Shown here in pieces: positions 3,662-33,255 of a stretch of 64,000 nucleotides of DNA; within the stretch, counting starts at the first letter, position 1; each line of letters opens with the position of its first letter. The position numbers and the translations under genes are program-made. This DNA is from an uncultured Rothia sp. Its GTDB lineage: Bacteria; Actinomycetota; Actinomycetes; Actinomycetales; Micrococcaceae. The stretch spans positions 1,223-65,222 of the forward strand of contig NZ_CAJZIE010000001.1 of the NCBI RefSeq assembly GCF_916049665.1, read 5' to 3'. Below the pieces are notes generated by a model. The model was not told where the DNA came from, made no database searches, and saw nothing but the letters and a program-made list of their open reading frames with translations.

Positions 3662-4088
3662 GCTGAGTTGCCTTAAATAGCGCGCTTAAGAGGTGTGCCT
3701 TAGTGCTTGGTTTAGGGGTTGGAAGTGTTGGTTTAGTCCCTTAAATAGTGGGTTTACGTGGTGTTTTGCCCCGTTAAAACGCTTATCGAAAAGGTTATTA
3801 CGTCCCTATGTCGAGAGAATTGTTTCCGATGTAAAATTTTCGTAAAAATTGTTAATCCGCCCCTTTTCCCCGGTATTCCGGGGCATTTTTTTACCCAGCT
3901 CCCTTTTAGCTTGCATACAGGCTGTTCTAAGGGGTGAAAGTGCCCAATGTGGGTTTGGTGGAAGTGTTACAGGCTATATAAGATAAAGTACATATGCTCC
4001 TAGTGACAGTCATCACGAAGCAGTGCGCTAGGACAGCATGACACACATGCCTTAACACCGACATCTACACAAGGAGGGGAACCGTCCC

Positions 4089-5084
4089 ATGTTTAGGTAC
4101 ATCCTCCAGCGATCGCTGACGTACCTCGTCATGGTCTTTATTACGACCACGATGGGTTACTTTGCAGCGGTTACTGCCCTGAAGCCTGCCCTCTTGGAGC
4201 AGGAAAAGGTTCCGAAGCCTAGCCCCGAGCAGGTGAACCGTAACTTCGCATCCCTGGGTCTCGATCCCGAAATGAACCCCTGGGACCGCTACGTTCAGTG
4301 GCTGACCAATGTGGTCACCAAGTTCGATTGGGGCCGTAGCCCCAACGGCGCGTACATTAACCAGGAATTTGGCCAGCGCGTGTGGGTTTCTACCCGCCTG
4401 CTGCTGGTGGCTACCATTCTCTCGATTGTGATTGGTATTGCCCTGGGTGTGTACTCGGCAGCTCGCCAGTACAAGTTCTCTGACCGTGTTATCACCGGTT
4501 ACTCCTACCTGGTCTACATCATCCCCGCTCCCGTTGCTTACTTCGTGGTGCAGCAGGGCGCGACCACTATCAACAACATCGCCGTTGCTAATGGTGGAGA
4601 GAAGATTTTCTATGTGACCGGTATTTCGACTCCGGGTCTGACCGGATTCTGGGAAATCACCATGGATATGGCGGCGCACTACGTCGTGCCGACCTTCTGT
4701 ATGACCATCTTCGGTTGGGCTGGTTACCAGATTGCACAGCGTCAGTACCTGCTCGATAACGTGAACGCTGACTTCGTGCGTACCGCTCGTGCTAAGGGCT
4801 TGACCCGTAACCAGGCGATTACTCGCCACGCACTGCGCGTCTCCTTCATCCCCGTGGCACAGTCCATCGCGTACCAGATTCCGATGATTTTTGCGGGTGC
4901 ATTCTTCGCCGAGACCGTCTTTGCATGGCCCGGTATCGGTAAGTGGTCGATTGACTCCATTTCCGCGCAGGACGTGAACGCTGCGACCGTGACCCTCGCG
5001 TACGGTTCTGCACTGTTCGCTGTCGGTGCGATCATCGCTGATATCGCTACCACCATCGTCGACCCCCGAGTGAGGATCTCATGA
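4089..5084 (+). CDS. oppB: ABC transporter permease, OppB/DppB family
   Basis: 331 aa with 6 predicted TM segments and an N-terminal 'ILQRSLTYLVMVF' typical of OppB/DppB. RBS 'aaggagggga' upstream. Start of a translationally coupled operon with the next two genes. Confidence 0.85.
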   Translation: MFRYILQRSLTYLVMVFITTTMGYFAAVTALKPALLEQEKVPKPSPEQVNRNFASLGLDPEMNPWDRYVQWLTNVVTKFDWGRSPNGAYINQEFGQRVWVSTRLLLVATILSIVIGIALGVYSAARQYKFSDRVITGYSYLVYIIPAPVAYFVVQQGATTINNIAVANGGEKIFYVTGISTPGLTGFWEITMDMAAHYVVPTFCMTIFGWAGYQIAQRQYLLDNVNADFVRTARAKGLTRNQAITRHALRVSFIPVAQSIAYQIPMIFAGAFFAETVFAWPGIGKWSIDSISAQDVNAATVTLAYGSALFAVGAIIADIATTIVDPRVRIS

Positions 5085-6082
5085 GTCAGGTAACTGCAAC
5101 TTCCTCCGTACCGGTGGTACAGGAGAACGGTGACTTCAAGGTCATCAACAAGAGCGTTATTATTCTGCGCCGCTTCCTGCGTAACAAGGCTGCAGTCTTC
5201 GGTCTGTGCGTGTTCATCGGCATGGGTCTGTTCGGTCTGTTCGGTAAGTACCTGACCAAGTACAAGCCCAACGACATTGACTACATGGCGCTGGGTGAAG
5301 GCCCCTCGGCCGAGCACTGGTTCGGTACCACCATCGCGGGTAATGACGTGTTCGCCATGATGTCTGAGGCCGTCTGGACCTCTCTCCAGATTGGTGTGGT
5401 CGTCGGTTTGGCCACTGTGTTCATCTCCGCAGTTTACGGTTGTGTGATGGCGTACTTCGGTGGCTGGATTGACAAGATTATGCTGTTCATCCTCGAGACC
5501 CTGATCATGGTTCCCTCGCTGCTGATTCTGGCAATTCTGATTAACGGTCAGGTTGGTAAGCAGATTCAGAAGAGCGTCCCCACCTGGGTTCTGCTCTCTG
5601 CAGTGCTGATTGCCTTCGGCTGGATGGGTAGCGCCCGTGTTATTCGTGCAATGGCGCAGTCCCTCATCAACCGCGACTTCGTGAAGGCTGCACGCTACAT
5701 GGGTGTGCACCCCTTCAAGATTGTGATGCGCCACCTGGTTCCGAACATTGGCTCCCTGCTGGTTCTGAACTTCACCAGCGGCATCATGGGCGCTGTGCTC
5801 TCTGAGGTCGCTTACTCCTTCATCGGCATCGGTATTAAGTACCCCAACTACTCGCTGGGCTCGCTGATTTCGGATGCTTCGCAGCAGATTAACACCCTGC
5901 CGCACATGTTCTGGTTCCCGGTTCTGTTCTTCTTCCTGCTGGTTGGTCCGCTGGCCCTCATGAACGACGGTCTGCGTGACGCATTCGACCCGACTTCGAT
6001 GTCGGTCGGTAAGATCAAGAAGTCCAAGAAGAACGAGAAGGCAGAGGCACCCGCTGCCGCTGCAAAGGAGGCGAAGAACTAA
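5081..6082 (+). CDS. oppC: ABC transporter permease, OppC/DppC family
   Basis: Overlaps oppB by 4 nt (ATGA). Polytopic membrane protein with the ABC-transmembrane-domain region typical of OppC. Confidence 0.85.
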   Translation: MSQVTATSSVPVVQENGDFKVINKSVIILRRFLRNKAAVFGLCVFIGMGLFGLFGKYLTKYKPNDIDYMALGEGPSAEHWFGTTIAGNDVFAMMSEAVWTSLQIGVVVGLATVFISAVYGCVMAYFGGWIDKIMLFILETLIMVPSLLILAILINGQVGKQIQKSVPTWVLLSAVLIAFGWMGSARVIRAMAQSLINRDFVKAARYMGVHPFKIVMRHLVPNIGSLLVLNFTSGIMGAVLSEVAYSFIGIGIKYPNYSLGSLISDASQQINTLPHMFWFPVLFFFLLVGPLALMNDGLRDAFDPTSMSVGKIKKSKKNEKAEAPAAAAKEAKN

Positions 6083-8175
6083 TGAGTACCTCTCCCGTTC
6101 TGAGCGTTAAGGACCTCAACGTCCGCTTCAATACTGAGAATGGCGTCGTGCACGCTGTTCGCGGTGTGAACTTTGACCTGTACCCCGGTAAGACCCTGGG
6201 TATTGTGGGTGAGTCCGGTTCCGGTAAGTCCGTTGCCTCCATGGCAATCATGGGTCTGCACCCGACTACCGCTGACATCACCGGTTCGGTCAAGTACAAC
6301 GGCACCGAGCTGCTGGGCTTGAGCGATAAGGAAATGTGCGCATACCGCGGCAAGGAGATCTCTATGATCTTCCAGGATCCGCTGTCCTCTCTGACCCCCG
6401 TGTACACCATTGGTGATCAGATTGCTGAGGTGCTCAAGGTCCACAACAAGGGCATGAGCAAGCAGGCTATCAAGGACCGTTCCATCGAACTGATGCGTAT
6501 GGTGGGTATTCCCTCGCCGGCTGACCGCCTGCGTTCCTTCCCGCACGAGTTCTCCGGTGGTATGCGTCAGCGCATCATGATCGCTATGGCGATTGCGAAT
6601 GACCCCCGCGTGCTCATCGCCGATGAGCCCACCACCGCACTGGATGTGACCATTCAGGCGCAGGTGCTGGAGGTTATGCAGAAGGCTCAGGATGAGACCG
6701 GCGCAGCGACCATCATGATTACCCACGACCTCGGTGTTGTGGCTGGTATGGCTGACGACATTCTGGTGATGTACGCCGGTAAGCCGGTGGAGATTGCGAA
6801 GGCAGAAGACCTGTACAAGCATCCCTCCCACCCGTACACCATCGGTCTGCTGGGTGCGGTCCCGCGTGTGGACCGTTCCGAGAAGGTCTCCCTGGTACCC
6901 ATCGAGGGTACCCCTCCGAACCTGATTAACCCGGTGACCGCGTGCTCCTTCCGCCCGCGTTGCCCCATCGCTAAAAGCGGTGGCCAGTGCTGCCAGGACT
7001 CCAACGGCGAGCCCGATCTGCAGCTGCTGGAAGGCGTTGGCGAGGGCCACTACTCCTCCTGCACCATCTCTCAGGAGCTGGTCGGTAAGACCGCAGACGA
7101 GCTGTACCCGGTTCCGGAACCCCCGGTATCGAAGTACGACGGCATCCCGCGTGAGGAGCGTGCCCCCGTCCTGGAGGTCCGCAACGTCAAGAAGCACTTC
7201 CCGCTCATGAAGGGTGCGCTGATTAAGCGCCGCGTGGGCACTGTGAAGGCTGTGAACGGCGTGTCCTTCGACATTCGCGAGGGCGAGTGCTTCTCCATCG
7301 TGGGTGAGTCCGGTTGTGGTAAGACCACCACCCTGCTGGAAATCATGGAGTTCAACAAGAACACCGACGGTGAGATTCTGATTAACGGAACCTCCACCAA
7401 GGACGGCAAGTCCGCAGGTGAGATTCTTGAGCTGCGTAAGAACCAGCAGATGGTGTTCCAGGACCCCACCGGTGCTCTGGATCCGCGCTTCACCGTTTAC
7501 GAGGTGCTGGCTGAGCCCCTGGAAAACCAGGGCATGAACAAGGCAGACATCAAGAAGCGCGTCATCGAGCTGATGCACATTGTGGGTCTGCAGCCCGACC
7601 ACGTGAACCGCTTCCCGAACCAGTTCTCTGGCGGTCAGCGTCAGCGTATCGGTATTGCTCGTGCGCTTGCCGTTAACCCTAAGCTCGTGGTTCTGGATGA
7701 GCCGGTGTCCGCACTGGACGTGTCCGTCCAGGCTGGTGTGATCAACCTGCTGGAGGAGTTGCGTGCAAACCTGGGCCTGAGCTACCTGATGGTTGCTCAC
7801 GACCTCGCGGTGATTCGCCACGCATCCGACCGCGTTGCAGTGATGTACCTGGGTCGTATTGTTGAGATCGGTGACGTCGACCAGGTGTTCGACAACCCGA
7901 TTCACCCGTACACCCGTGCACTGCTCTCGGCGATTCCGGTTCCGGATCCCGAGGTTGAGGCAAAGCGCCACCGCATTATGCTTGAGGGCGACCTGCCCAC
8001 TCCGGTGAACGCGCCTAAGGGTTGTGGCTTCTCGAGCCGTTGCCCGGTCTTCAAGCTGCTGCCTGAGGACAAGAAGCGTCGTTGCCTGGAGGAGATGCCG
8101 GAACTGACCCCCGTTGAGGGCCAGGATCACGGTTATGCTTGCTACTACCCTGAGGCTGAGGCCGCTACGGTGTAG
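6082..8175 (+). CDS. oppD: ABC transporter ATP-binding protein with two fused ATPase domains (OppD-OppF fusion)
   Basis: Two Walker A motifs ('GESGSGKS' and 'GESGCGKT'), two 'LSGGQRQR/FSGGMRQR' signature motifs, and Opp-type C-terminal Cys-containing extensions. Overlaps the oppC stop (TAATG). Confidence 0.9.
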   Translation: MSTSPVLSVKDLNVRFNTENGVVHAVRGVNFDLYPGKTLGIVGESGSGKSVASMAIMGLHPTTADITGSVKYNGTELLGLSDKEMCAYRGKEISMIFQDPLSSLTPVYTIGDQIAEVLKVHNKGMSKQAIKDRSIELMRMVGIPSPADRLRSFPHEFSGGMRQRIMIAMAIANDPRVLIADEPTTALDVTIQAQVLEVMQKAQDETGAATIMITHDLGVVAGMADDILVMYAGKPVEIAKAEDLYKHPSHPYTIGLLGAVPRVDRSEKVSLVPIEGTPPNLINPVTACSFRPRCPIAKSGGQCCQDSNGEPDLQLLEGVGEGHYSSCTISQELVGKTADELYPVPEPPVSKYDGIPREERAPVLEVRNVKKHFPLMKGALIKRRVGTVKAVNGVSFDIREGECFSIVGESGCGKTTTLLEIMEFNKNTDGEILINGTSTKDGKSAGEILELRKNQQMVFQDPTGALDPRFTVYEVLAEPLENQGMNKADIKKRVIELMHIVGLQPDHVNRFPNQFSGGQRQRIGIARALAVNPKLVVLDEPVSALDVSVQAGVINLLEELRANLGLSYLMVAHDLAVIRHASDRVAVMYLGRIVEIGDVDQVFDNPIHPYTRALLSAIPVPDPEVEAKRHRIMLEGDLPTPVNAPKGCGFSSRCPVFKLLPEDKKRRCLEEMPELTPVEGQDHGYACYYPEAEAATV

Positions 8176-8207
8176 CTCTAGAGTCGGCTGAATAAGTCGC
8201 ATGTGTG

Positions 8208-8251
8208 CCGAGGGGCGAATATTCGTTGAATATTCGCCCCTCGGGTTTTTT
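8208..8251 (+). terminator. rho-independent terminator after oppD
   Basis: Hairpin 'ccgaggggcgaatattcgttgaatattcgcccctcgg' followed by TTTTTT. Confidence 0.7.
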
Positions 8252-8604
8252 ATGCCCGGTATTGGTGGGCTGTACGTTGTTCGAGATTGTCACCTAGTGA
8301 GACGGTGCGAGCCGCAGAATGTGGCGCTAGGCACTGAAACCACCAAGAAAACAGGAAAAACTGCACTGACTAGGCGTAACCTTTCTCACCATTCAAGATA
8401 TGAATATTTATGGAAGAGCTTTCCTGCTGGCAGTAAGCCATAATTAAGCCTGTGGGTGCGCCGCTAGGGGCGTACCTCAAGGAACACATTCATAGACCGG
8501 CACTAATTCATCGCTCACCGCACCCTATTGCGGCGCATGAGCAGGGAATCCTTGACGCTTTCCTGCAGGATTATTGAGGGTCAAACGTATAAGAGGACAC
8601 TCTC

Positions 8605-10305
8605 ATGGAGAAGAATTTCATCCTGAACCGTCGTACCGTTCTCGGTGGCGCTGCAGCACTGGGTACCGTGGGCGTACTGGCTGCGTGCGGCTCGTCCAAG
8701 GACTCCAAGGCAACCACCAAGGGTGCAACCGTGGGCACCGATGCCAAGGAGCTTTATGACCTTGGCGAGGCCGCTGTTTCTGAGCTGAAGGATGGCGGCA
8801 CTCTGCGCCTGGCTGTTCCGGGTATTGGTCCGGACTTCAACCTTTTCAGCGCGGACGGCAACTCCCTGTACACCCAGACCGCTATGAGCCCCGTGGCTTA
8901 CGCAGGCCTGTGGCAGGGTGACCCCCTGGGTAAGCGCACTCTGGCTCCCGAGTTTGCGAAGAGCTTCGATGTCGCCGAAGAAAACGGTCTGCCCGTCGTC
9001 TCCATTGAGCTGAACCCCCAGGCTAAGTTCAACGATGGTACCCCCATCGACTACAAGGCTCTGCAGGCTACCTGGAACATCCTCAAGAGCACCGATGGTG
9101 ACTACAAGGTCGGAAGCAGCGGCATCTACAGCAGCATTGCTTCCGTGGATCGCGACGGTGATGACTTCAAGGTGAAGGTAACCTTCTCCGCACCTTACTA
9201 CCCGCTGAATACCCTCTTCGCTGGCATTGTGCACCCGGCTCTGCTGGACAAGGAACTCTTCAACACTGGTTTCGTTGACAAGCCGCACCCCGAGTACTGG
9301 GTTGGCCCCTTCACCATTGCTGAAGGTGGTTGGAACTCGACCGAGAAGACCCTGACCCTGACCCGCAACGACAAGTGGTGGGGCGAGAAGCCCGTTCTGG
9401 AGCGCATTGTCTTCCGTCAGATGGATCCCGCTGCTGAGCGCGCGGCATTCAAGAACGATGAGCTTGATGCGATTGGTGCTACCACCGCTTCCGCATACAA
9501 GGAGCTCAAGGACGTTGCTAACATCGAGATCCGCCGAGGCTCTCGCCTGTTCTCCGGTGGCGTGACCATGAACCCCGCCCGCATGCAGGATGTTGCTCTG
9601 CGCCGCGCTGTGGTTACTGGTCTGAACCGTGAGGCTCTCGCCAAGGTTCGTTTCCAGGGCCTGGATTACGAAGAGAAGCTTCCCAACTCGATGATTCACA
9701 TGCCCTTCAACGAGTACTACCAGGACACCTACCCGACCCCGAACAACGATGCTGCTGCAGCATCCAAGATTCTGGAAGATGCAGGCTACACCAAGAACGG
9801 TGAGTTCTACGAGAAGGACGGCAAGCAGGCTGCCTTCAAGTTCTCCATCTTCGGTGAGGATCCCACCTCCAAGGCTGTCGGTCAGACCCTGGTTCAGCAG
9901 CTGAAGTCCGTAGGTATTAATGCTGAGCTCGACTCCCGTGCTGTTAGCGAGTTTAACAAGACCATGGCCTCCAAGGACTACGACGCAACCTCCTCCGGTT
10001 TCGCTCCGAGCTCCCCGGATGCTACCGAGGCTACCGAGCAGTTCTACATGCGCCGTAAGCCTGAGGAAGCCGGTTCCGATGAGATCAATGAGATGATCGC
10101 AAAGATGAAGCTCATTGCTGACGACAAGGAACGCAACCAGGCTTGCAATGAGATCGAGAAGAAGCACCTGGCTGAGTTCGCAGTGCTGATTCCGCTCATG
10201 AACGGCCCCGAGTACAAGTTCGTGAAGAAGGGTCTGCGCAACTACGGCGTGTCCCTCTTCCAGGGCACCGGCATTCACTGGGAGAAGGTTGGTTGGGCTA
10301 AGTAA
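8605..10305 (+). CDS. ABC transporter substrate-binding lipoprotein, family 5 (peptide/nickel/opine type), paralog 1
   Basis: RBS 'aagagga'. Signal 'NRRTVLGGAAALGTVGVLAACGSS' is a twin-Arg-like lipobox. Conserved family-5 motifs 'KFNDGTPI' and 'NDKWWGEKP'. Confidence 0.85.
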   Translation: MEKNFILNRRTVLGGAAALGTVGVLAACGSSKDSKATTKGATVGTDAKELYDLGEAAVSELKDGGTLRLAVPGIGPDFNLFSADGNSLYTQTAMSPVAYAGLWQGDPLGKRTLAPEFAKSFDVAEENGLPVVSIELNPQAKFNDGTPIDYKALQATWNILKSTDGDYKVGSSGIYSSIASVDRDGDDFKVKVTFSAPYYPLNTLFAGIVHPALLDKELFNTGFVDKPHPEYWVGPFTIAEGGWNSTEKTLTLTRNDKWWGEKPVLERIVFRQMDPAAERAAFKNDELDAIGATTASAYKELKDVANIEIRRGSRLFSGGVTMNPARMQDVALRRAVVTGLNREALAKVRFQGLDYEEKLPNSMIHMPFNEYYQDTYPTPNNDAAAASKILEDAGYTKNGEFYEKDGKQAAFKFSIFGEDPTSKAVGQTLVQQLKSVGINAELDSRAVSEFNKTMASKDYDATSSGFAPSSPDATEATEQFYMRRKPEEAGSDEINEMIAKMKLIADDKERNQACNEIEKKHLAEFAVLIPLMNGPEYKFVKKGLRNYGVSLFQGTGIHWEKVGWAK

Positions 10306-10352
10306 GTCCTCATCCCTTCACCTCCTAGGTGAATAGCCTAGAGCTATTGAAA

Positions 10353-10387
10353 GTGTCCACCCGGATTATCCGGGTGGACACTTTTTG
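10353..10387 (+). terminator. rho-independent terminator after SBP paralog 1
   Basis: Hairpin 'gtgtccacccggattatccgggtggacac' followed by TTTTT. Confidence 0.7.
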
Positions 10388-10671
10388 CATTTCTGGAGGG
10401 GGCTTTGGGTGCTTTTGTGTACCTATGTGGGGGAGTGATGGTATAGCTATCCGGCAAAATCCGAAAAATTCGCGCAAAAACAGGGTATTCATAGTATGAA
10501 TATTCAAAAAATACGATAAATATTAAGAAATATTGTGAAAATGCTTGGTTTTCGCTCTCGAGGTGCGCTACAGTGAAGTCATACAAAGTTATGCAGTGCT
10601 CTGCATAAATAATCATTACTTCGGGAATACGGGGTACACCCGCCCGCACAAGACAGAAGGAAACCACTCCC

Positions 10672-12402
10672 ATGACCGCCAACACCGCATACACCGCGAG
10701 TAGCCACGAAGCGACCAAGAACAGCTTCAGCCGCCGCGCGCTCATTGGCGGCACCGCGGCTCTGGGAGCTGTAGGTCTGCTCAGCGCCTGCGGCAACGGC
10801 AGCGCAAGCTCTGAAAAGACCAAGGCCGCCGGCGCCGGTGCCAATATCGAAGACCTCTACAACATCAACGCTCAGGACGTGAACAGCCTGAAGAAGGGCG
10901 GCACTCTGCGCCTGCCCGCCGGATCCATCGGCCCGAACTTTAACTTCTACACCCAGAGCGGTAACACCAGCGATAACGTCAACGTTATGAGCACCATCAG
11001 CCAGGCTGGCATGTGGAACCTCGACTTTGACGGTACCTACAAGCTGAACACCGACTTCGCTGTCTCCTTCGAGCACAGCAAGAAGGATGACAAGATTCAG
11101 GTTGCCGTCAAGCTCAACCCCAAGGCTGTCTTCAATGATGGCACCCCCATCACCTACAAGGCGCTCCAGTCCACCTGGAACATCTTCAAGAGCCTGGATA
11201 ACGGCTACAACATTGTCACCAGCGGCATCTACGAATTCGTCGAATCCGTAGAAAAGGGCGAAGACGACTACAGTGCAATCGTCACCTTCTCCAAGCCCTT
11301 CTACCCGCTGCAGAGCCTCTTCTCTGAGATTCTGCACCCCGCACTGGAAGACGTCGAGCTCTTCAACAACGGCTTCGTGGATGCGCCCCACCCCGAGTAC
11401 TGGGCCGGCCCCTTCACCCTGGCGGATAAGGGCTGGGACTCCACCGCGAAGACCTTCAGTGTTGTACCCAACGATAAGTGGTGGGGCACCAAGCCCCTGC
11501 TGGACAAGATTGTCTTTACCCAGATGGAGTCCAGCGCTGCACGTGCCGCGTTCAAGAATGATGAAATTGACGCTATCGGTGCAAGCACCTCCTCCACCTA
11601 TGCCGAGGTGAAGAACATTGCGGGTACCGAACTGCGTAAGGGTACCCGCCTCTACGCCGGTGGCCTGGATATTAATCCCCGTCGCGTCAAGGATGCTGCC
11701 CTGCGTAAGGCAATCTTCGTCGGCACCAACCGTGAAGCACTGGCAAAGATTCAGTTCCAGGGTCTGCCCTATGAGGAGGCTATTCCCGGTTCGATGATTC
11801 ACATGCCCTTCTCGCCCTACTACCAGGATTCTTACCCGACCCCGAATAACAGCGTTTCGGAGGCGCAGAAGATTCTGGAGGCCGCCGGCTACACCAAGAA
11901 CGGCGACTACTACGAGAAGGACGGCACGAAGGCTGGCTGCGCAGTGGTGGTCTTCGGTGACGATCCGACCAACAAGGGTAAGGCTCAGACCTTCACTCAG
12001 CAGATGAAGGATGTCGGTATCGAGATCCGGATTGATCAGCACGCCGATAGCGAGTTCGCCACCATTCTGGGCAACTGGGACTACGATATTTCCTTCAGCG
12101 GCTACTCGGTCTCTGCTGACGCGACCGAGAGTACCAAGCAGTTCTACTACTCCGAGAACAACGAAGGTATCGGCAGCAAGGAAATCGATGCCCTCATCGA
12201 CGCCATGACCCTCATTGAGGATGACAAGGAACGTAACCTCGCCTGCAACGAGATTGAGAAGAAGCACATGGCGGAGTTCGCCTTCCTGGGCACCATTACG
12301 AACGGTCCTGACTTTGTGATGGTCAAGAAGACTCTGGCTAACTACGGTCCGCGCCTGTACAAGTCGATGGACTGGGCTGCTGTGGGCTGGATGAACTCCT
12401 AA
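10672..12402 (+). CDS. ABC transporter substrate-binding lipoprotein, family 5, paralog 2
   Basis: RBS 'gaaggaaa'. Signal 'SRRALIGGTAALGAVGLLSACG'. Shares 'KAVFNDGTPI', 'PNDKWWG' and 'GYTKNGDYYEKDGT' motifs with its neighbours. Confidence 0.85.
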   Translation: MTANTAYTASSHEATKNSFSRRALIGGTAALGAVGLLSACGNGSASSEKTKAAGAGANIEDLYNINAQDVNSLKKGGTLRLPAGSIGPNFNFYTQSGNTSDNVNVMSTISQAGMWNLDFDGTYKLNTDFAVSFEHSKKDDKIQVAVKLNPKAVFNDGTPITYKALQSTWNIFKSLDNGYNIVTSGIYEFVESVEKGEDDYSAIVTFSKPFYPLQSLFSEILHPALEDVELFNNGFVDAPHPEYWAGPFTLADKGWDSTAKTFSVVPNDKWWGTKPLLDKIVFTQMESSAARAAFKNDEIDAIGASTSSTYAEVKNIAGTELRKGTRLYAGGLDINPRRVKDAALRKAIFVGTNREALAKIQFQGLPYEEAIPGSMIHMPFSPYYQDSYPTPNNSVSEAQKILEAAGYTKNGDYYEKDGTKAGCAVVVFGDDPTNKGKAQTFTQQMKDVGIEIRIDQHADSEFATILGNWDYDISFSGYSVSADATESTKQFYYSENNEGIGSKEIDALIDAMTLIEDDKERNLACNEIEKKHMAEFAFLGTITNGPDFVMVKKTLANYGPRLYKSMDWAAVGWMNS

Positions 12403-12810
12403 AAGGTGCCTGTCTTGCGAGCGGGTCGAATGCGTATATGCGCGTTCGGCCCGCTTTGCTGTGCCCGTTGGCTATTTCTGGAGGTGGGGGAGGGGTGTTG
12501 CGCGAAGGATAGTGGGGTTGTGTCGATATGGATTTAGGCCCGCTGCATTAGGGTCGGGCGTAATAATTGAGAAATATTTATCGTGTTGCGCACCTGTAGT
12601 GATTTATGTGGTGTACACTACTAAAAATATTAAATGTGGCTTAGAACATAGCTTTAGGTCACATTATTTTGCATGGCTTGACCTGCCCGCCCATCACCGC
12701 AGATAGCAGGCGCTCCTGCAGACGGAAACCCCGCCTCCAGAGCACGCAAGCCACCCACTCTACACTGCAAACACTGCATCAGCGCAGTCCACACCCACAA
12801 GGAGCCCATC

Positions 12811-14511
12811 ATGAGCCCCCACCCCATCCCCTCCCTCTCCGGATTCAACCCGATCATGAGCCGCCGCGTACTGTTCGGCGGCGCAACCGCCGTCGCTGCT
12901 GCCGGCGTACTGAGCGCTTGTGGCTCCTCGTCCTCCAAGACCGAGCACAAGGCAAGCGAAACCCCGTTCTATGAAATCAACGAGCAGGATGCCTCGAAGC
13001 TCAAGCAGGGCGGTACCCTGAACCTGAGCACTTACTCCCTTGGTCCGGACTTCAACCGCTTCTCCCAGAACGGCTCGAGCACCTCCGTCTCCGAAACCAT
13101 GGGCGTTATCGCCGGTGCCGGCATCTGGCGCAGCACCTTCAAGGGCGAAGATGAGCTCGACCCCAACTACTGCCTCGGCTTCGAAGCTAAGGAAGTAGAC
13201 GGCAAGATCACCGCAGAGGTTCGTCTGAACCCCAAGGCAGTCTTCAACGACGGCACCCCCATCGACATCGATGCACTCAAGGCAACCTGGCAGATCCAGC
13301 GTGACCCCGACGGTGAATACAAGATTGCCGCAGCAGGTATCTACGAGTACATCGAAAGCGTTGAAGCTATCGATGGCGACCGCTACCACGCACGCGTTGT
13401 TTTCAAGACTGCGCACAACCCCGTCAAGGGTCTGCTCTTCGGCGGAATCCTGCACCCGGCGATGCTCGACGTAAACCTCTTCAATGAAGGCTTCGTGGAC
13501 AACCCCCACCCCGAGCTCGGTTGCGGCCCCTTCACCCTGGCACCCAACGGCTGGAACTCCTCCGAGAAGACCTTCACTGCTGTGCCCAACGACAAGTGGT
13601 GGGGTGAGAAGCCCAAGCTGGACCGCATCGTCGTGCGTGAAATGGCAGACGCTGCAGCTCGCGCCGCCTACAAGAACGGCGAGCTGGACGTCGTGGAATC
13701 ACGTACCCTCAGCGCCTACAACGAGATGAAGGACGTTGCAAACTCTGAAATCCGCCGCGGTCGCCGCCTCTTCGCCGGTGGTATGAACCTGAACGCACAG
13801 CACATCACCGATGTTGCCGTGCGTAAGGCAATCTTCCTGGGTATCGATCGCGGTGCTCTGGCAAAGATTCGCTTCCAGGGTCTGCCCTACGAAGAAGAAG
13901 TTCCCGGCTCGATGCTTCTGTTGGGTTCCTCCCAGTACTACCGCGACAACTACCCGGCACGTAACCCGGAGGAAGCACGCAAGGTCCTGGAGAAGGCAGG
14001 CTACACCAAGTCCGGCGACTTCTACGCGAAGGACGGCAAGACCATCACCTTGAAGCTGACCACCTTCGGTGATGACGCCACCACCAAGGGCCAGGCACAG
14101 ACCTTCATCCAGAGCATGAAGGAAATCGGCATTAACTTCGAGCTCGATTCGCGTGCACAGTCTGAATTCTCGAAGGTTGTTGGTAACCGCGAGTACGACG
14201 TAAGCATTTCGGGCTTCGGCGTGACCTCCGAGCCGACCAGTGCAGCCGAGTACTTCTACCACTCCAAGAACTGGAACGGCGTCGGCACCCCCGAAATCGA
14301 CGCTATGGTCGACGAGATGGTCACCATCCTCGATGACGCTAAGCGCGCCGAGAAGTGCAACGAAATTGAGAAGAAGCACATGAGCGAGGTTTGCCTCTTC
14401 ATCCCCTTCCTCAATGGCCCGGACTTCAAGGCATGCCGCCCGAAGCTCGCTAACTACGGTGCGTTCCTCTTCAAGACCACCGACTGGTCTACCGTCGGCT
14501 GGATGGCATAA
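12811..14511 (+). CDS. ABC transporter substrate-binding lipoprotein, family 5, paralog 3
   Basis: Strong SD 'aaggag' 6 nt before the ATG at 12811. Lipobox 'MSRRVLFGGATAVAAAGVLSACG' begins 15 codons in. Same conserved motifs as the other paralogs. Confidence 0.85.
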   Translation: MSPHPIPSLSGFNPIMSRRVLFGGATAVAAAGVLSACGSSSSKTEHKASETPFYEINEQDASKLKQGGTLNLSTYSLGPDFNRFSQNGSSTSVSETMGVIAGAGIWRSTFKGEDELDPNYCLGFEAKEVDGKITAEVRLNPKAVFNDGTPIDIDALKATWQIQRDPDGEYKIAAAGIYEYIESVEAIDGDRYHARVVFKTAHNPVKGLLFGGILHPAMLDVNLFNEGFVDNPHPELGCGPFTLAPNGWNSSEKTFTAVPNDKWWGEKPKLDRIVVREMADAAARAAYKNGELDVVESRTLSAYNEMKDVANSEIRRGRRLFAGGMNLNAQHITDVAVRKAIFLGIDRGALAKIRFQGLPYEEEVPGSMLLLGSSQYYRDNYPARNPEEARKVLEKAGYTKSGDFYAKDGKTITLKLTTFGDDATTKGQAQTFIQSMKEIGINFELDSRAQSEFSKVVGNREYDVSISGFGVTSEPTSAAEYFYHSKNWNGVGTPEIDAMVDEMVTILDDAKRAEKCNEIEKKHMSEVCLFIPFLNGPDFKACRPKLANYGAFLFKTTDWSTVGWMA

Positions 14512-14523
14512 GCCGCAGTTTTA

Positions 14524-14580
14524 AGCTCCCTGCCCCCTATACGTTTTCGCAGTGTCGTATAGGGGTGGGGAGCTTTTTCT
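14524..14580 (+). terminator. rho-independent terminator after SBP paralog 3
   Basis: Hairpin 'agctccctgccccctatacg...cgtataggggtggggagct' followed by TTTTT. Confidence 0.65.
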
Positions 14581-14840
14581 TGTGGAGGGTTCAGTGCGCT
14601 TTAGTTGCCCCGACGCTGTGCTTGTAACTTGTAACGACTCTCAAAGTACCGGGTGTGACGCGCTCGCGCGCCAATGCTACATAATATTTCATTTTTTAGT
14701 TTTCGCACGCGGCTTCCGCATGATGATGCGGTTTCAGGCGCTGAACCCGTGATTTTTAGACGGTGTATAGTTCTTCCACGGATTGGACTGTGGTCTGCGT
14801 CGCTTCTTTTGGGGGTATACTGTGTTTCAACCACAAACAA

Positions 14841-14856
14841 TGTGGGGGCTCTCACA
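14841..14856. promoter_or_regulatory. CRP/GlxR-like palindrome TGTGG-N6-TCACA upstream of SBP paralog 4
   Basis: 'TGTGGgggctcTCACA' matches the Crp family consensus TGTGA-N6-TCACA. It lies ~100 bp upstream of the start codon. Confidence 0.4.
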
Positions 14857-14954
14857 AAGGTGATGGGCGGGAGCTTCGGCGCTCCCGAAAAATCAGCGCA
14901 CAACACGGTGCGCTTATCGAATAGCACCCGAGCCCTCCGGCATGAGGAGAATAC

Positions 14955-16664
14955 ATGACTCATCTACGTATTAATCGCCGTACCCTGCTGACCGGCACCG
15001 TTGCCCTGGGTACCGTCGGCCTGCTCGCTGCATGCGGCGGCGGCTCTGACAAGAAGATCAGCGGTAAGGCTGCATCAAGCACCGAGGAAATCGTCAAGAA
15101 CCTCGAAATCAACAAGCAGGACCGCTCCTCCCTCAAGCAGGGTGGCGAGTTCCGCGGTAGCGTCTCCGCAGTCGGCCCGAACTTCAACATTCTGACTCAG
15201 AGCGGCTACACCACCGAGAACCTCACCGCATTCGGTGGCGCCTGCAACATCCCCTCCGCTATCGGCTTCACCTCCCTAAGCCCTGCTGGCGAATACAGCC
15301 TCAACGACGACTATGTCAGCGACTACAAGGCAGAGACCGTTGGCGGCGTGCAGACCATCACCTTCAAGCTCAACTCTAAGGCTGTCTTCAATGACGGCAC
15401 CCCCGTTGACGTTGAGGCAATCCGCGCCGCGTGGACCGTCTACCGCAACCCTGATGACGGCTACAACGTTATCGCCGCTCCCTTCTGGCAGCAGGTAGCA
15501 TCCATCGACCCCGTGGATGGCGACAAGACCCGCGTCAAGATCGTCATGTCCAAGCCCCTGTACCCCGCTGAGACCCTCGGCCTGCTCGGTCTGCACCCCG
15601 CACTGACCGACAAGGAGCTCTTCAATAACGGCTTCGTGAACAAACCCATGGATCAGTACTGGTCCGGCCCCTTCAAGATTGGCGAGTGGAACTCTTCGGC
15701 TAAGACCCTCACCCTCGTGCCCAACGACAAGTGGTGGGGCGAGAAGCCTCTGCTGGATCGCATCATCTGGCGCGAAATGGGCGACGAAGCAGAGCGCGCA
15801 GCGTTCAAGAACGGCGAGCTGGACAGCATCGGCTTTGCTGGCCTGGCAACCTACAACGCCGTCAAGGGTCAGCCCGGTGTTCAGATTCGCTCCGGCCAGA
15901 GCGTTGGCGTGATCAACCTGCAGTTCAACCCGACCCGCGTGACCGACACCGCCCTGCGCCGTGCAGTCTTCGCCGCGGTTGACCGCTCCCAGCTGGCTAA
16001 GGTCAAGTTCGGCCAGATCAACTGGGAAGAGCCGCTGACCGGCTCCATGATCGCTATGCCCTTCCAGAAGGGCTACCAGAACAACATGCCGTCCAACCCC
16101 GGCGCCGAGGCTGCGGCAAAGATCCTGGAAGCAGCAGGCTACTCCAAGAATGGCGACTACTACGCCAAGGACGGCAAGACTGCAGGCTTCTCCATCACCT
16201 ACTTCGGTTCGGATGCAACCTCCCTGGCTCAGTTCCAGAACCTCGAGCAGCAGCTCAAGGCAGCAGGTATTAAGCTCGAGCAGGACAACCAGCCGCAGTC
16301 CCAGTTCAACTCCGTGATGGGCTCTAAGCAGTACGACTGCGCCTTCTCCGGCTGGGGTATTGGTGCTGACCCCGCAGACAGTGTTCAGTACTTCTACACC
16401 AGCGAAATCAACGAAGGTGTGGGCGATCCCGAGCTGGATAAGTTCATCGCGTCTATTTACGAGAAGGAATCCCACGAGGAGCAGTTGAAGATGGCTGCTG
16501 AGGCTGAGAAGCAGCACATGGAGAAGGTCGCTATTTACTTCCCCTACGCTAACGGCCCCAGCTACGCAGCTGTGAAGGAGAAGCTGGCTAACTATGGTCC
16601 TTCCCTCTTCGCAACCAGCTACACCGACCCCAAGCGCTGGGTCAATGTGGGTTGGCAGAACTAA
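14955..16664 (+). CDS. ABC transporter substrate-binding lipoprotein, family 5, paralog 4
   Basis: RBS 'gaggag'. Signal 'NRRTLLTGTVALGTVGLLAACGGG' is near-identical to those of paralogs 5 and 6. Confidence 0.85.
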   Translation: MTHLRINRRTLLTGTVALGTVGLLAACGGGSDKKISGKAASSTEEIVKNLEINKQDRSSLKQGGEFRGSVSAVGPNFNILTQSGYTTENLTAFGGACNIPSAIGFTSLSPAGEYSLNDDYVSDYKAETVGGVQTITFKLNSKAVFNDGTPVDVEAIRAAWTVYRNPDDGYNVIAAPFWQQVASIDPVDGDKTRVKIVMSKPLYPAETLGLLGLHPALTDKELFNNGFVNKPMDQYWSGPFKIGEWNSSAKTLTLVPNDKWWGEKPLLDRIIWREMGDEAERAAFKNGELDSIGFAGLATYNAVKGQPGVQIRSGQSVGVINLQFNPTRVTDTALRRAVFAAVDRSQLAKVKFGQINWEEPLTGSMIAMPFQKGYQNNMPSNPGAEAAAKILEAAGYSKNGDYYAKDGKTAGFSITYFGSDATSLAQFQNLEQQLKAAGIKLEQDNQPQSQFNSVMGSKQYDCAFSGWGIGADPADSVQYFYTSEINEGVGDPELDKFIASIYEKESHEEQLKMAAEAEKQHMEKVAIYFPYANGPSYAAVKEKLANYGPSLFATSYTDPKRWVNVGWQN

Positions 16665-16914
16665 AGCCACAGGTTAATTTTCTGGATTCCTATTCGGTAG
16701 TTTCTGAATTTTCGGAGGCGCCGGTTCAGGTCTCCAGAAGGGTAAAGTCCCGCGGTATTCCGCCTCAGTGGCGGGGTACTGCGGGGCTTTTCTGTGTTTT
16801 TGATGGGGGGTTTGTGGTGGGGTGGTTTCGGGGATTGGCTGAAATATTTTCCCTAAAACGGTGAACTAGGTCATAGTGCGTGGGAAATGTGTGTATACTA
16901 ATCTCAATGCAAAA

Positions 16915-16930
16915 TGTGCGTGCTGTCACA
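16915..16930. promoter_or_regulatory. CRP/GlxR-like palindrome TGTGC-N6-TCACA upstream of SBP paralog 5
   Basis: 'TGTGCgtgctgTCACA' lies ~65 bp upstream of the start, followed by the same 'TCACAAAGGTG' string seen at paralog 4. Confidence 0.4.
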
Positions 16931-16995
16931 AAGGTGTGCGGGTTGTGTTCCCCCGCGTACAGCAAAGCAGCATCCCACCTAACTGAGGAAAACTA

Positions 16996-18702
16996 ATGAC
17001 CACTTTCACCCTCAACCGTCGTACCCTGCTCACCGGCACCGTTGCCCTGGGTACCGTCGGCCTGCTCGCAGCCTGCGGCGGCAACTCCTCCAAGAACGAA
17101 ACCAGCGCTCTCTCCGCCGGCGACGACCTCTCCAAGGCAGTCTCCTACAACGAGAAGGACCGCTCCGCCCTCAAGGACGGCGGCGAGCTGCGACTGAGCG
17201 CAGACGGCATTGGCCCGAACTTCAACATCCTCAACACCAACGGCTACACCGCCGGTAACCTGAATATTCAGGCGGCTATCAACTCTGCCTTCACCGGCGG
17301 CTTCTACGCTGACTTCCGCGGCGAGTCGCACATGAACAAGGACTACGTCACCGAATACAAGGCGCAGACCGTTGACGGCGTGCAGACCGTGACCTTCAAG
17401 ATCAACCCCAAGGCAGCCTTCAACGACGGTACCCCCATCGACGTGAACGCCGTCAAGAGCTACCAGACCATCTACACCGCCGCGGCATCCGGTTCGGACT
17501 ACCAGATCACCCCCTCGCCCATCTGGGAACAGGTCGCAAGCGTCGAGGCTGTGGACGGCGATACCCGCCACGTGAAGGTCACCATGTCCAAGCCCTGGTA
17601 CCCCATCGAAGGCAGCTTCACCTCGTTCCTGCACCCGGCATTCGCCGACCCCAAGTTCTTCAACGACGGCCTGAACGACAAGCCCCTCGACCAGTACTGG
17701 GCAGGTCCCTTCAAGGTCGGCGAGTGGAACTCCTCCTCCAAGGTGCTCACCGTCGTCCGCAACGAGAAGTGGTGGGGCACCAAGCCCGCTCTTGAGCGCA
17801 TCACCTGGCGTGAAATGAGCTCCCAGGCAGAGCAGGCAGCTTACAAGAACGGCGAAATCGACTACGTGGATGCCAGCACCCTCAGCTCCTACAACGAGCT
17901 CTCCGGCGTGGCAAACACCGACATTCGCAAGGGTAGCGCTCTCAGCGTGGGCAACTACGAAATCAACCCCGAAAAGGTGCCCCTGCCCGTCCGCCGCGCA
18001 TTCGTTGCAGCCCTCAACCGTGAGCAGCTGCAGAAGCTGCGCTACGAGAAGCTCGGCTGGAAGGAAACCCTGCCCGGCTCCATGTGCATGCTGCCCATGC
18101 AGGAAGGCTACCAGGACAACTACCCGACCAAGCTCGGCAAGGACGTCGCTACCAAGATCCTTGAGGACGCAGGCTACACCAAGTCCGGTGACTACTACAC
18201 CAAGGACGGCGCTAAGGTCTCCTACCCGGTCATCACCTTCGGTAGCGACCCGGTTGTCAGCTCCACCGCGCAGTTCCTCGTCCAGCAGATGAAGGAAATC
18301 GGCGTTGAACTGACCATCGAGAACCACGGTGCCTCTGAAATGTCGAGCATCATCTCCTCGAAGAACTTCGCGATTAAGACCGGTGGCTACGGCATCACCA
18401 CCTCCCCGGTGGATGCGGCGAACTACTTCTACATCTCCGAGACCAACAACGGTCACGGTAAGGATCTGGACTCGCTGGCAGCAACCATGATGTCCACCGA
18501 GGACCCGAAGGAACAGCTCAAGATCATGAACGAGCTGGAGAAGCGCCACCTGGACGAGGTCGCCATCTACGTGCCCACCCACAACGGCCCGAACTTCAAG
18601 GCGTGCCGTAAGGGCCTGGCGAACTACGGCCCCATGCTCTTCGGCCTGCCCTACTACAACCCGAACGTATGGATCAACGTCGGTTGGGAGAAGCAAAACT
18701 AA
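16996..18702 (+). CDS. ABC transporter substrate-binding lipoprotein, family 5, paralog 5
   Basis: RBS 'gaggaaa'. Signal 'NRRTLLTGTVALGTVGLLAACGGN'. Confidence 0.85.
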   Translation: MTTFTLNRRTLLTGTVALGTVGLLAACGGNSSKNETSALSAGDDLSKAVSYNEKDRSALKDGGELRLSADGIGPNFNILNTNGYTAGNLNIQAAINSAFTGGFYADFRGESHMNKDYVTEYKAQTVDGVQTVTFKINPKAAFNDGTPIDVNAVKSYQTIYTAAASGSDYQITPSPIWEQVASVEAVDGDTRHVKVTMSKPWYPIEGSFTSFLHPAFADPKFFNDGLNDKPLDQYWAGPFKVGEWNSSSKVLTVVRNEKWWGTKPALERITWREMSSQAEQAAYKNGEIDYVDASTLSSYNELSGVANTDIRKGSALSVGNYEINPEKVPLPVRRAFVAALNREQLQKLRYEKLGWKETLPGSMCMLPMQEGYQDNYPTKLGKDVATKILEDAGYTKSGDYYTKDGAKVSYPVITFGSDPVVSSTAQFLVQQMKEIGVELTIENHGASEMSSIISSKNFAIKTGGYGITTSPVDAANYFYISETNNGHGKDLDSLAATMMSTEDPKEQLKIMNELEKRHLDEVAIYVPTHNGPNFKACRKGLANYGPMLFGLPYYNPNVWINVGWEKQN

Positions 18703-18951
18703 GCGTTGAGCACCGCTCACACACTCCATAAGGGGTAAAAGCGCTACAGCGGCGTGTTACAAAAGGATTAAAACCTTCTGTAGCACGCCGCTTTCCCGTT
18801 CCTAAGAGAGTCGCACGGATATACTTAAAACAAATGTGGGCATTCTGCCCGCAACCCCGGCAGAGACTGTCCTCCCGCCGGGTTGGAGTGTGGGTTACGC
18901 ACCGTTCGCGTACCGCCTCCACAACACTGCGAATACTCTAGGAGAAATTCC

Positions 18952-33134: not shown

Positions 33135-33167
33135 AATTTTTTGTGGGGGCTATTGCCAAAACTGGTT

Positions 33168-33211
33168 TTTGGTGACAATATGTCATTAACAGTTTGGTGA
33201 CACAGTGTCAT
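33168..33211. promoter_or_regulatory. two tandem palindromic operators (TTTGGTGACA-N-TGTCAT) upstream of hmuO
   Basis: 'tttggtgacaatatgtcat' and 'tttggtgacacagtgtcat' are spaced 25 bp apart, at -88 to -45 relative to the hmuO ATG. Confidence 0.5.
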
Positions 33212-33255
33212 CAAAACCTTTATTGTTCACCCACAAGTCGCTATAGGAGCTCACC

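Follow-up and report, generated by a model that had tools for sequence, protein, structure and literature searches.

Predicted Crp/GlxR-type operator sites at the promoters of a peptide-uptake (opp) locus in Rothia

The DNA analysed here is a stretch of 64,000 nucleotides from an uncultured Rothia sp. (the window), which carries a peptide-uptake locus. In it oppB, oppC and a fused oppDF are followed by six paralogous genes for family-5 solute-binding proteins (SBP1 to SBP6), and the word ATGTGG recurs in the upstream regions of this locus. The copies of this word are not one element. Four of them, at SBP1 (8320), SBP3 (12635), SBP4 (14841) and SBP5 (16915), are the left halves of CRP-type 16-mers; at these genes ATGTGG forms the promoter-proximal half of an imperfect 16-bp palindrome, (A/T)ATGTG-N8-CA(C/T)A. 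Together with a site in front of oppB at 4002, predicted CRP-type sites stand at five of the seven promoters of the locus (oppB, SBP1, SBP3, SBP4 and SBP5). We read these as predicted Crp/GlxR operators, an interpretation that we place just on the probable side, and the other ATGTGG copies as hairpin arms or chance matches.

The predicted sites are listed below, with mismatches counted against the ten specified positions of TGTGA-N6-TCACA.

14841-14856, + strand: SBP4 CRP-type palindrome TGTGGGGGCTCTCACA, exact TGTG-N8-CACA, 1 of 10 mismatched
16915-16930, + strand: SBP5 CRP-type palindrome TGTGCGTGCTGTCACA, exact TGTG-N8-CACA, 1 of 10 mismatched
4002-4017, + strand: oppB CRP-type site AGTGACAGTCATCACG, missed by the initial annotation, GTGA-N6-TCAC core, 2 of 10 mismatched
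16860-16875, + strand: SBP5 upstream CRP-type site GGTGAACTAGGTCATA, 2 of 10 mismatched
8320-8335, + strand: SBP1 distal CRP-type site TGTGGCGCTAGGCACT, one mismatch to TGTG-N8-CACA, 3 of 10 mismatched
12635-12650, + strand: SBP3 CRP-type site TGTGGCTTAGAACATA, right half weaker, one mismatch to TGTG-N8-CACA, 3 of 10 mismatched

The sites have the form of a 16-bp imperfect palindrome with GTG and CAC cores 8 bp apart, and those at SBP1 8320 and SBP3 12635 retain the TGTG/CA(C/T) core despite their three mismatches. The palindromes at SBP4 and SBP5 are exactly as the initial annotation gave them, each followed by TCACAAAGGTG, and they are the only exact TGTG-N8-CACA in the 64 kb (2 found against 1.07 expected). 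That annotation had proposed Crp/GlxR-type control of at least these two genes and a half-site-like element on every transcription unit of the locus. The first part holds up, with the two palindromes being the top TGTGA-N6-TCACA matches in the window and their half-sites conserved; the second finds no support at SBP2, SBP1 8449, SBP6 and oppB 3946.

When up to two mismatches in ten are allowed, TGTGA-N6-TCACA is matched eight times in the window, five of these in the 2.7 kb of opp intergenic DNA (4002, 14630, 14841, 16860 and 16915). Dinucleotide shuffles of the opp regions contain a mean of 0.81 such sites, and 1 in 1000 reaches five. The shorter pattern TGTG-N8-CACA, with at most one mismatch, has seven matches in the window, four of them in opp leaders (8320, 12635, 14841 and 16915). 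GTG-N8-CAC occurs 14 times, with five occurrences in intergenic DNA and four of those five at opp, and the strong intergenic CRP-like sites of the window are all at opp.

A separate observation concerns the abundance of this pattern elsewhere. TGTG-N8-CACA with at most one mismatch is rarer than expected in coding DNA (2 against 8.5 +/- 3.0 in codon-order shuffles) and over the whole window (7 against about 27 in dinucleotide shuffles). Most of the deficit is due to codon usage, and the remainder could be avoidance of spurious sites.

The copies of the word itself, all reported earlier, were found in the sequence, some of them deviating from the motif as first described (CTGTGGG at 8450, ATGTGCG at 16914).

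3946-3953, + strand: oppB copy AATGTGGG, upstream of the putative -10 region
8318-8325, + strand: first SBP1 copy AATGTGGC
8450-8457, + strand: second SBP1 copy CTGTGGGT, without ATG
10424-10433, + strand: SBP2 copy TATGTGGGGG
12632-12640, + strand: SBP3 copy AAATGTGGC
14839-14848, + strand: SBP4 copy AATGTGGGGG
16912-16920, + strand: SBP5 copy AAATGTGCG, with TGTGC in place of TGTGG
18832-18840, + strand: SBP6 copy AAATGTGGG

Counted across all 64 kb, ATGTGG shows no enrichment, with 29 copies where 28 are expected. Its distribution in intergenic DNA is uneven: seven sense and no antisense copies in the 2,673 nt at opp, against no sense and one antisense copy in the remaining 6,739 nt of the window (Fisher p = 1.8e-6). 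AATGTGG is also shared more widely among the seven upstream regions than any other 7-mer: five of them have it, a count reached in 0 of 100 shuffles. From this concentration at opp leaders in a single orientation it follows that the word is real, local and oriented and is no general promoter word of the window. The suggestion that it might be a general promoter element is not borne out, as the other intergenic regions have no copy on their sense strand. The copies noted before in unrelated intergenic regions were recovered, GTGTGGGGCT at about 879-888 and TGTGGGGGCT at about 33142-33151, and no CACA partner was found in either context. Two more copies, invariant and unlisted earlier, adjoin -10 boxes at SBP3 (12606) and SBP5 (16886).

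Conservation was assessed in 75 related loci (L001-L075), with the Arthrobacter group among L037-L075. By its matches the window belongs to the Rothia mucilaginosa group, and in L001-L020 the SBP4 protein is 94-99% identical. The SBP upstream alignments hold 15-21 distinct strains of this group per gene, including the divergent alleles L009 and L011. For the four leader sites and 16860, mean identity over 16-19 strains falls from 0.969 in the half-sites to 0.886 in the spacer and 0.853 in the flanks, so that at orthologous promoters the half-sites are kept while the spacer varies. Such bipartite conservation at a fixed spacing is the pattern left by a dimeric DNA-binding protein.

At SBP1 8320, SBP3, SBP4 and SBP5 the word sits inside a conserved block. 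Of 18 strains, 17 have the SBP4 palindrome unchanged, among them the 87%-identical allele L011, while the flanks diverge. At SBP5 16915 both halves are kept in 15 of 19 strains, and four divergent leader alleles have (T/C)GTG-N8-CATA; at SBP5 16860, GTGA and TCA(T/C) are retained around a variable spacer in 19 strains. The SBP3 site has TGTGGCTTA and CATAG invariant in 16 strains, and the three positions between them (10-12) vary. In L017 the SBP1 8320 site reads TGTGGTTCTCGGCACT, which retains TGTGG-N7-CACT within diverged flanks. The SBP2 10424 copy, on the other hand, is replaced by ATGCGG, ATGTAG or GTGCAG in other strains and is probably a non-conserved chance match. For oppB 3946, whose sole comparison is the 98%-identical L039, no counterpart was found in L029 and L033.

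Two side observations bear on these alleles. The SBP5 leader (16930-16995, against L006, L009, L013 and L017) falls into two allele classes, set apart by an altered right half-site and insertions of 16 nt and about 62 nt. The SBP1 and SBP5 proteins are 79%-100% identical among strains whose OppDF is 95-100% identical, and variable binding proteins beside a near-constant OppDF suggest allelic replacement or diversification of the former.

Beyond the R. mucilaginosa group, the oppB site AGTGACAGTCATCACG has counterparts at the same position after the CTATAAGAT box, CGTGACCCCACTCACA in Rothia sp. L029 and AGTGTCTTGAATCACA in L033. The OppB proteins of these three Rothia lineages are 71-72% identical, and similar sites are found upstream of SBP genes in L029, L032 and L033. 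About 40 loci of Arthrobacter, Pseudarthrobacter and Paenarthrobacter have an oppB leader that contains TGnTAGTTT-CCTCTGG-AATGTGAC-N6-(A/C)CATAG. Its general form in the Arthrobacter group is an extended -10 TGnTAGTTT, 7-8 nt, and AATGTGA(C/T)-N6-(A/C/G)CA(T/C)A, with a site centre that differs by group (CCCGCG, CGCATG or TTCGAA). Both halves and their spacing are common to the SBP3 site (AATGTGGCTTAGAACATAG) and the Arthrobacter site (AATGTGACCCGCGACATAG). Conserved CRP-like sites also occur in unrelated intergenic regions of the Arthrobacter-group loci, one of them directly upstream of a -10 box, and strong CRP-like sites are about 2.4-fold enriched in the intergenic DNA of these loci. That the motif returns at orthologous promoters of different genera argues most strongly for its being read by a conserved regulator.

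The oppB leaders of the three Rothia lineages share, in addition, a second conserved box, CACACA(C/T)ATG, about 45 nt before the start codon (4039-4048 in the window, where it lies within the palindrome GCATG-ACACA-CATGC). A c-di-AMP riboswitch (RF00379, 49.8 bits) at 21614-21707 of L050, a Paenarthrobacter-type locus, is cut by the locus end and is unrelated to the sites.

The position of the sites relative to the promoters was judged from the following boxes.

3974-3982, + strand: putative oppB -10 region, CTATATAAG/TATAAG, with CTATAAGAT conserved in three Rothia lineages
10569-10574: candidate SBP2 -10 box, TACAGT, conserved
12614-12619: candidate SBP3 -10 box, TACACT
14816-14821: candidate SBP4 -10 box, TATACT
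16894-16899: candidate SBP5 -10 box, TATACT

In each of SBP3 to SBP6 the motif is preceded at 8-20 nt by an invariant TAyACT hexamer. The leaders have no canonical -35 element, and a sigma-70 scan gave no -35/-10 pairs in them; the lack of a canonical -35 is usual in Actinomycetota. The site centres follow the putative -10 box by 23.5 nt at SBP3 and SBP5 and by 27.5 nt at SBP4 and oppB, which would place them at roughly +16 to +21. Most centres are 19-32 nt after a conserved -10-like box, which would correspond to roughly +12 to +25. The SBP5 16860 site has its centre some 29 nt ahead of that of the -10 box, near -39; the SBP1 8320 site precedes the putative start by about 120 nt; and the oppB 4002 site is 55 nt downstream of the oppB 3946 copy.

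Other roles for the word in these leaders were considered and rejected. Class II activation from a site at -41.5 would require, for the downstream sites of SBP3, SBP4 and SBP5, a -10-like hexamer at the appropriate distance, and none is there. ATGTGG as a second -10 box (nAnAAT) with a GTGGG discriminator would need A at -11 and T at -7, which do not occur consistently, whereas the upstream TAyACT is invariant. Leader peptides beginning at the ATG of the word ("MW..." upstream open reading frames) are contradicted by ACG in three SBP5 alleles and by the absence of the ATG from the SBP6 leaders of L009 and L011; moreover, codon 2 changes, the frames are unconserved and no Shine-Dalgarno sequence precedes them.

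Further upstream, the leaders contain AT-rich boxes rAATATTy (ATGAATATTTAT, GAAATATTT) at 8402-8409, 10497-10502, 10522-10537, 12572-12579, 14682-14689 and 16842-16849. They lie about 35-50 nt upstream of the -10 in SBP1, SBP2, SBP3 and SBP5, and farther upstream in SBP4. These boxes are invariant between strains, and AATATT as a shared word is not significant by occurrence. They could be UP elements or the sites of a second regulator.

Mechanistically, a dimer of a Crp/GlxR-type global regulator would bind the sites at oppB, SBP1, SBP3, SBP4 and SBP5. At the sites just past the -10 box the bound regulator would block RNA polymerase and so repress the opp promoters, while the SBP5 site near -39 would activate or fine-tune. 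For a Crp acting at sites downstream of the -10 boxes, repression would be likelier than classical activation. By analogy with known systems, peptide uptake would be tied to cyclic AMP (cAMP) and carbon status and would be shut off as long as the regulator is held active by a preferred carbon source. The analysis shows the sequence itself, the enrichment, the bipartite conservation and the recurrence at orthologous promoters of other genera; which protein binds, where transcription starts and whether regulation is positive or negative are points that we infer. Literature searches returned nothing on Crp or GlxR in Rothia, no paper connecting GlxR to opp genes and no description of a Crp regulon in Micrococcaceae. 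A database search with the M. tuberculosis protein Rv3676 returned only close relatives of the query, with identities of at least 86% in several other actinobacterial genera, which means that the Crp family is very conserved in Actinomycetota and nothing more.

Several observations weigh against Crp/GlxR operators. No Crp-family gene was found in the 64-kb window or the 75 loci by tblastn with an approximate Rv3676 query. At the level of single sites, the left half has G or C in Rothia where the consensus has A at position 5, the right halves of SBP1 (GCACT) and SBP3 (ACATA) are weak, and four SBP5 alleles carry CATA, three of these with CGTG. The SBP4 spacer is as invariant as its half-sites, which is not required of a pure Crp site and makes SBP4 uninformative on whether the spacer is free to vary. 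For the 8-position pattern, dinucleotide shuffles of the opp regions give only P = 0.015, with about 0.9 one-mismatch matches per shuffle. The strict 7:0 strand bias of ATGTGG also fits an RNA-level role or common descent of duplicated leaders, and predicted hairpins overlap the transcribed CRP-type sites. Finally, the putative -10 assignments and the +12 to +25 positions derive from conserved boxes.

The hairpins deserve closer attention, as all six SBP leaders have a predicted one within about 20 nt of the putative start, with TGTGG inside it.

8449-8482, + strand: SBP1 hairpin (predicted fold), just after a conserved ATAATT box, holding CTGTGGG
10589-10608, + strand: SBP2 hairpin TTATGCAG-TGCT-CTGCATAA (from fold and alignment), downstream of the TACAGT box
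12633-12665, + strand: SBP3 13-bp leader hairpin with ATTTTG next to it, overlapping the CRP-type site, one-sided changes only
14831-14845, + strand: SBP4 hairpin CCACA-AACAA-TGTGG, an alternative partner for TGTGG
16907-16921: SBP5 5'-proximal hairpin
18836-18852, + strand: SBP6 hairpin GTGGGCA-TTC-TGCCCGC, whose 5' arm is the ATGTGGG copy, without CAC at N8

The SBP6 hairpin is paired in 60 of 60 alignment cells, with compensatory changes in three of its seven pairs, against 29-57% paired in slid controls; its 5' arm becomes AGTGAGTG or AGTGAGCG in L011 and L009, and the other arm compensates. In SBP1 the TGTGGG at 8449 changes to ATGGGC, TAGGGG or GAGGGC in other strains, and pairing is kept by one-sided changes only. 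Pairing of the SBP2 hairpin is likewise kept mainly by one-sided changes, one pair showing compensatory ones: over nine rows its closing pair is G-C in four, A-U in one, U-A in one and broken in three. At the place of the SBP4 hairpin, R. nasimurium-group leaders have CCATAC...GTGTGG or TCACAC...GTGTGG. Against shuffles, the SBP4 leader folds with z = -4.0 and the SBP6 leader with z = -3.2. We conclude that the 5' hairpins are a real and separate leader feature, which accounts for the SBP6 and SBP1 8449 copies of the word and not for the N8 palindromes.

Additional features were observed in the same leaders. The SBP3 hairpin followed by ATTTTG resembles a terminator. In SBP6 a competing long-range pairing (columns 23-34 with 44-57 of alignment A2) also covaries. 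The SBP6 open reading frame begins at TTG 18883 in the mechanically generated list, and its likely start is ATG 18952, after AGGAG at 18940-18944 (region 18883-18954 of the window), which makes the SBP6 leader about 70 nt longer than that list implies.

These hairpins invite an account at the RNA level, in which a 5' stem-loop stabilises or structures each SBP mRNA, ATGTGG descends from tandem leader duplication with a retained G-rich arm, and no protein reads the DNA. The sense-strand restriction of the motif, the full pairing and compensatory changes of the SBP6 hairpin, the persistence of pairing through changes in SBP1, SBP2 and SBP3, the better-than-shuffled folding of SBP4 and SBP6 and the presence of a TGTGG-bearing hairpin near every putative SBP start all speak for it. 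No structure is common to the leaders, however: TGTGG forms the 5' arm of the hairpin in three of them (SBP1, SBP3 and SBP6) and the 3' arm in the two others that carry it (SBP4 and SBP5). The leaders show neither a common covarying structure nor a described family of cis-regulatory leader RNA, with no Rfam match at the gathering score or even at E <= 1. A 4-bp TGTG/CACA stem with an 8-nt loop would be unstable, yet the N8 spacing and both tetramers are conserved; the CATAG loop sequence is invariant in SBP3; Arthrobacter has the same motif with a different centre and fixed spacing; and sites upstream of promoters exist (16860, 8320 and L041 18518). We therefore regard this account as unlikely. 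A combined reading, in which AATGTG-N8-CAYA after Micrococcaceae opp promoters serves both as a DNA operator and, in the transcript, as part of mutually exclusive leader hairpins, would put SBP expression under dual control. The alternative pairs may be CCACA/TGTGG or TGTGGG/CTCACA in SBP4 and a local or a long-range pairing in SBP6, and some covariation is seen for each. It would imply an undescribed leader RNA switch or stability element beside the DNA regulator, and we hold it to be quite improbable.

A different protein could also read TGTG-N8-CACA. The obvious candidate for such a dimeric helix-turn-helix repressor, acting locally on opp, is a TetR-family regulator whose gene precedes oppB, in the same orientation, in R. 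mucilaginosa. Orthologues about 42% identical to it lie upstream of oppB in Rothia L029 and L033, with a different gene between; R. mucilaginosa, L029 and L033 are also the lineages in which the oppB site is shared. In all Arthrobacter-group loci a TetR gene of a different subfamily is directly upstream of oppB. A location just past the -10 box is typical for repressor operators, and some TetR-family repressors, such as McbR, use 5-N6-5 palindromes. Yet the Rothia and Arthrobacter TetRs show no detectable relationship beyond the fold (BLASTP E = 5.8) and have different recognition helices (VSPRTFFNYF against VGKGTVFRRF), though the opp motif is common to both genera. The Arthrobacter TetR has a palindrome of its own, AAACGGAC-N4-GTCCGTTT, at its own promoter, and this is absent from the oppB leader. 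Autoregulation of the Rothia TetR through the same motif was rejected, as neither a TGTG-N8-CACA-like site nor another palindrome was found before the TetR or MFS genes; R. nasimurium-group loci have no TetR match in about 3.8 kb upstream of oppB; and covariation of regulator and operator was not found. A local repressor is less likely than a conserved global regulator; as the reader of these particular sites we consider it rather unlikely. Chance and base composition, by which TG-rich intergenic DNA would yield short TGTG words with nothing functional shared, would fit the expected window-wide ATGTGG count, the 2 exact palindromes against 1.07, the non-conserved SBP2 copy and the one-mismatch matches that shuffled opp intergenic regions alone produce (about 0.9 each). 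Against it stand the strand-specific concentration of the word at opp leaders (p ~2e-6), the shuffle tests (P = 0.001-0.015), half-site conservation exceeding that of the flanks, and the motif at orthologous promoters of other species and genera. This explanation is largely refuted by the comparative data and seems to us very improbable.

The genes considered here lie between 990 and 20655; those upstream of SBP1 are as follows.

990-1703: TetR-family regulator gene, same strand as oppB
1845-3572: MFS transporter gene
4089-5084: oppB
5081-6082: oppC
6082-8175: fused oppDF

With SBP4 taken as reference (first alignment row), the other five SBPs are 41-61% identical to it. Each SBP gene has its own upstream region of 250-450 nt, the six are separately promoted, and terminator-like hairpins lie 3' of oppDF and of SBP4.

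Some further candidate operators were seen beside the TetR genes and elsewhere. The palindrome AAACGGAC-N4-GTCCGTTT is perfectly conserved about 45 nt upstream of the Arthrobacter-group TetR gene (for example L047 4631-4650), at the -35 position, and is probably the operator of that TetR itself; the gene (L037-L075) is apparently leaderless, its GTG start coming 7-8 nt after a -10 box. In the window, the DNA that separates the TetR and MFS genes holds a tandem direct repeat at 1720-1790, ACCAAATCGGGGCG twice and then CCGATTCG...CCGAATC, a candidate operator of the Rothia TetR with no relation to the TGTG motif. At 33172-33215, in intergenic DNA ahead of a minus-strand gene (30667-33021), a pair of adjacent TGACA-N3/4-TGTCA palindromes, GGTGACAATATGTCA and GGTGACACAGTGTCA, looks like the operator of another regulator.

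If Crp/GlxR operators are indeed present, they tie peptide uptake in R. mucilaginosa, an abundant oral and airway commensal, and in the wider Micrococcaceae to a Crp/GlxR-type global regulator in a way that can be tested. The conserved sites listed above would also form a small seed set for a genome-wide motif model. That six SBP paralogues each have their own promoter, operator-like site and 5' hairpin suggests individual tuning.

Among known systems, the 22-bp CRP consensus of E. coli is AAATGTGATCTAGATCACATTT, and class I and class II activating positions are -61.5 and -41.5. The Rothia sites resemble its left half in having an A-rich 5' flank followed by TGTG (AAATGTG, CAATGTG), whereas most of them lie off the activating positions. 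At the RNA level, 5'-terminal stem-loops stabilise bacterial mRNAs, as in the ompA leader; the SBP leader hairpins likewise lie a few nucleotides from the putative 5' end, and that of SBP6 covaries. A stem-loop of the ompA type would cover the hairpins of SBP6, SBP1 8449 and SBP2 and would leave the conserved N8-spaced TGTG/CACA unexplained.

The closer parallels are found in Actinomycetota. Corynebacterium glutamicum GlxR sites are 16-bp imperfect palindromes with the same half-sites and spacing as those predicted here from sequence; the latter differ in having G or C rather than A at position 5 of the left half and G+C-rich spacers. GlxR has the consensus TGTGA-N6-TCACA, and one imperfect half does not prevent function, as the ldhA site TGTGATTTTTTCAACA shows (PMC7999487). 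GlxR acts as both activator and repressor, and cAMP in C. glutamicum is high on glucose (PMC10187061). The sites of M. tuberculosis CRP(Mt) (Rv3676) are also palindromic with an E. coli-like consensus; binding near the transcription start goes with repression and binding upstream with activation, and whiB1 has tandem activating and inhibitory sites (PMC4117774). The SBP5 pair at about -39 and +17 resembles the tandem whiB1 sites, with the difference that the Rothia starts are placed only by conserved -10 boxes. Because Crp/GlxR operators, repressing ones near the start included, are well known in other Actinomycetota, the sites are conceptually nothing new: they are an ordinary but well-supported regulatory prediction and no new kind of element.

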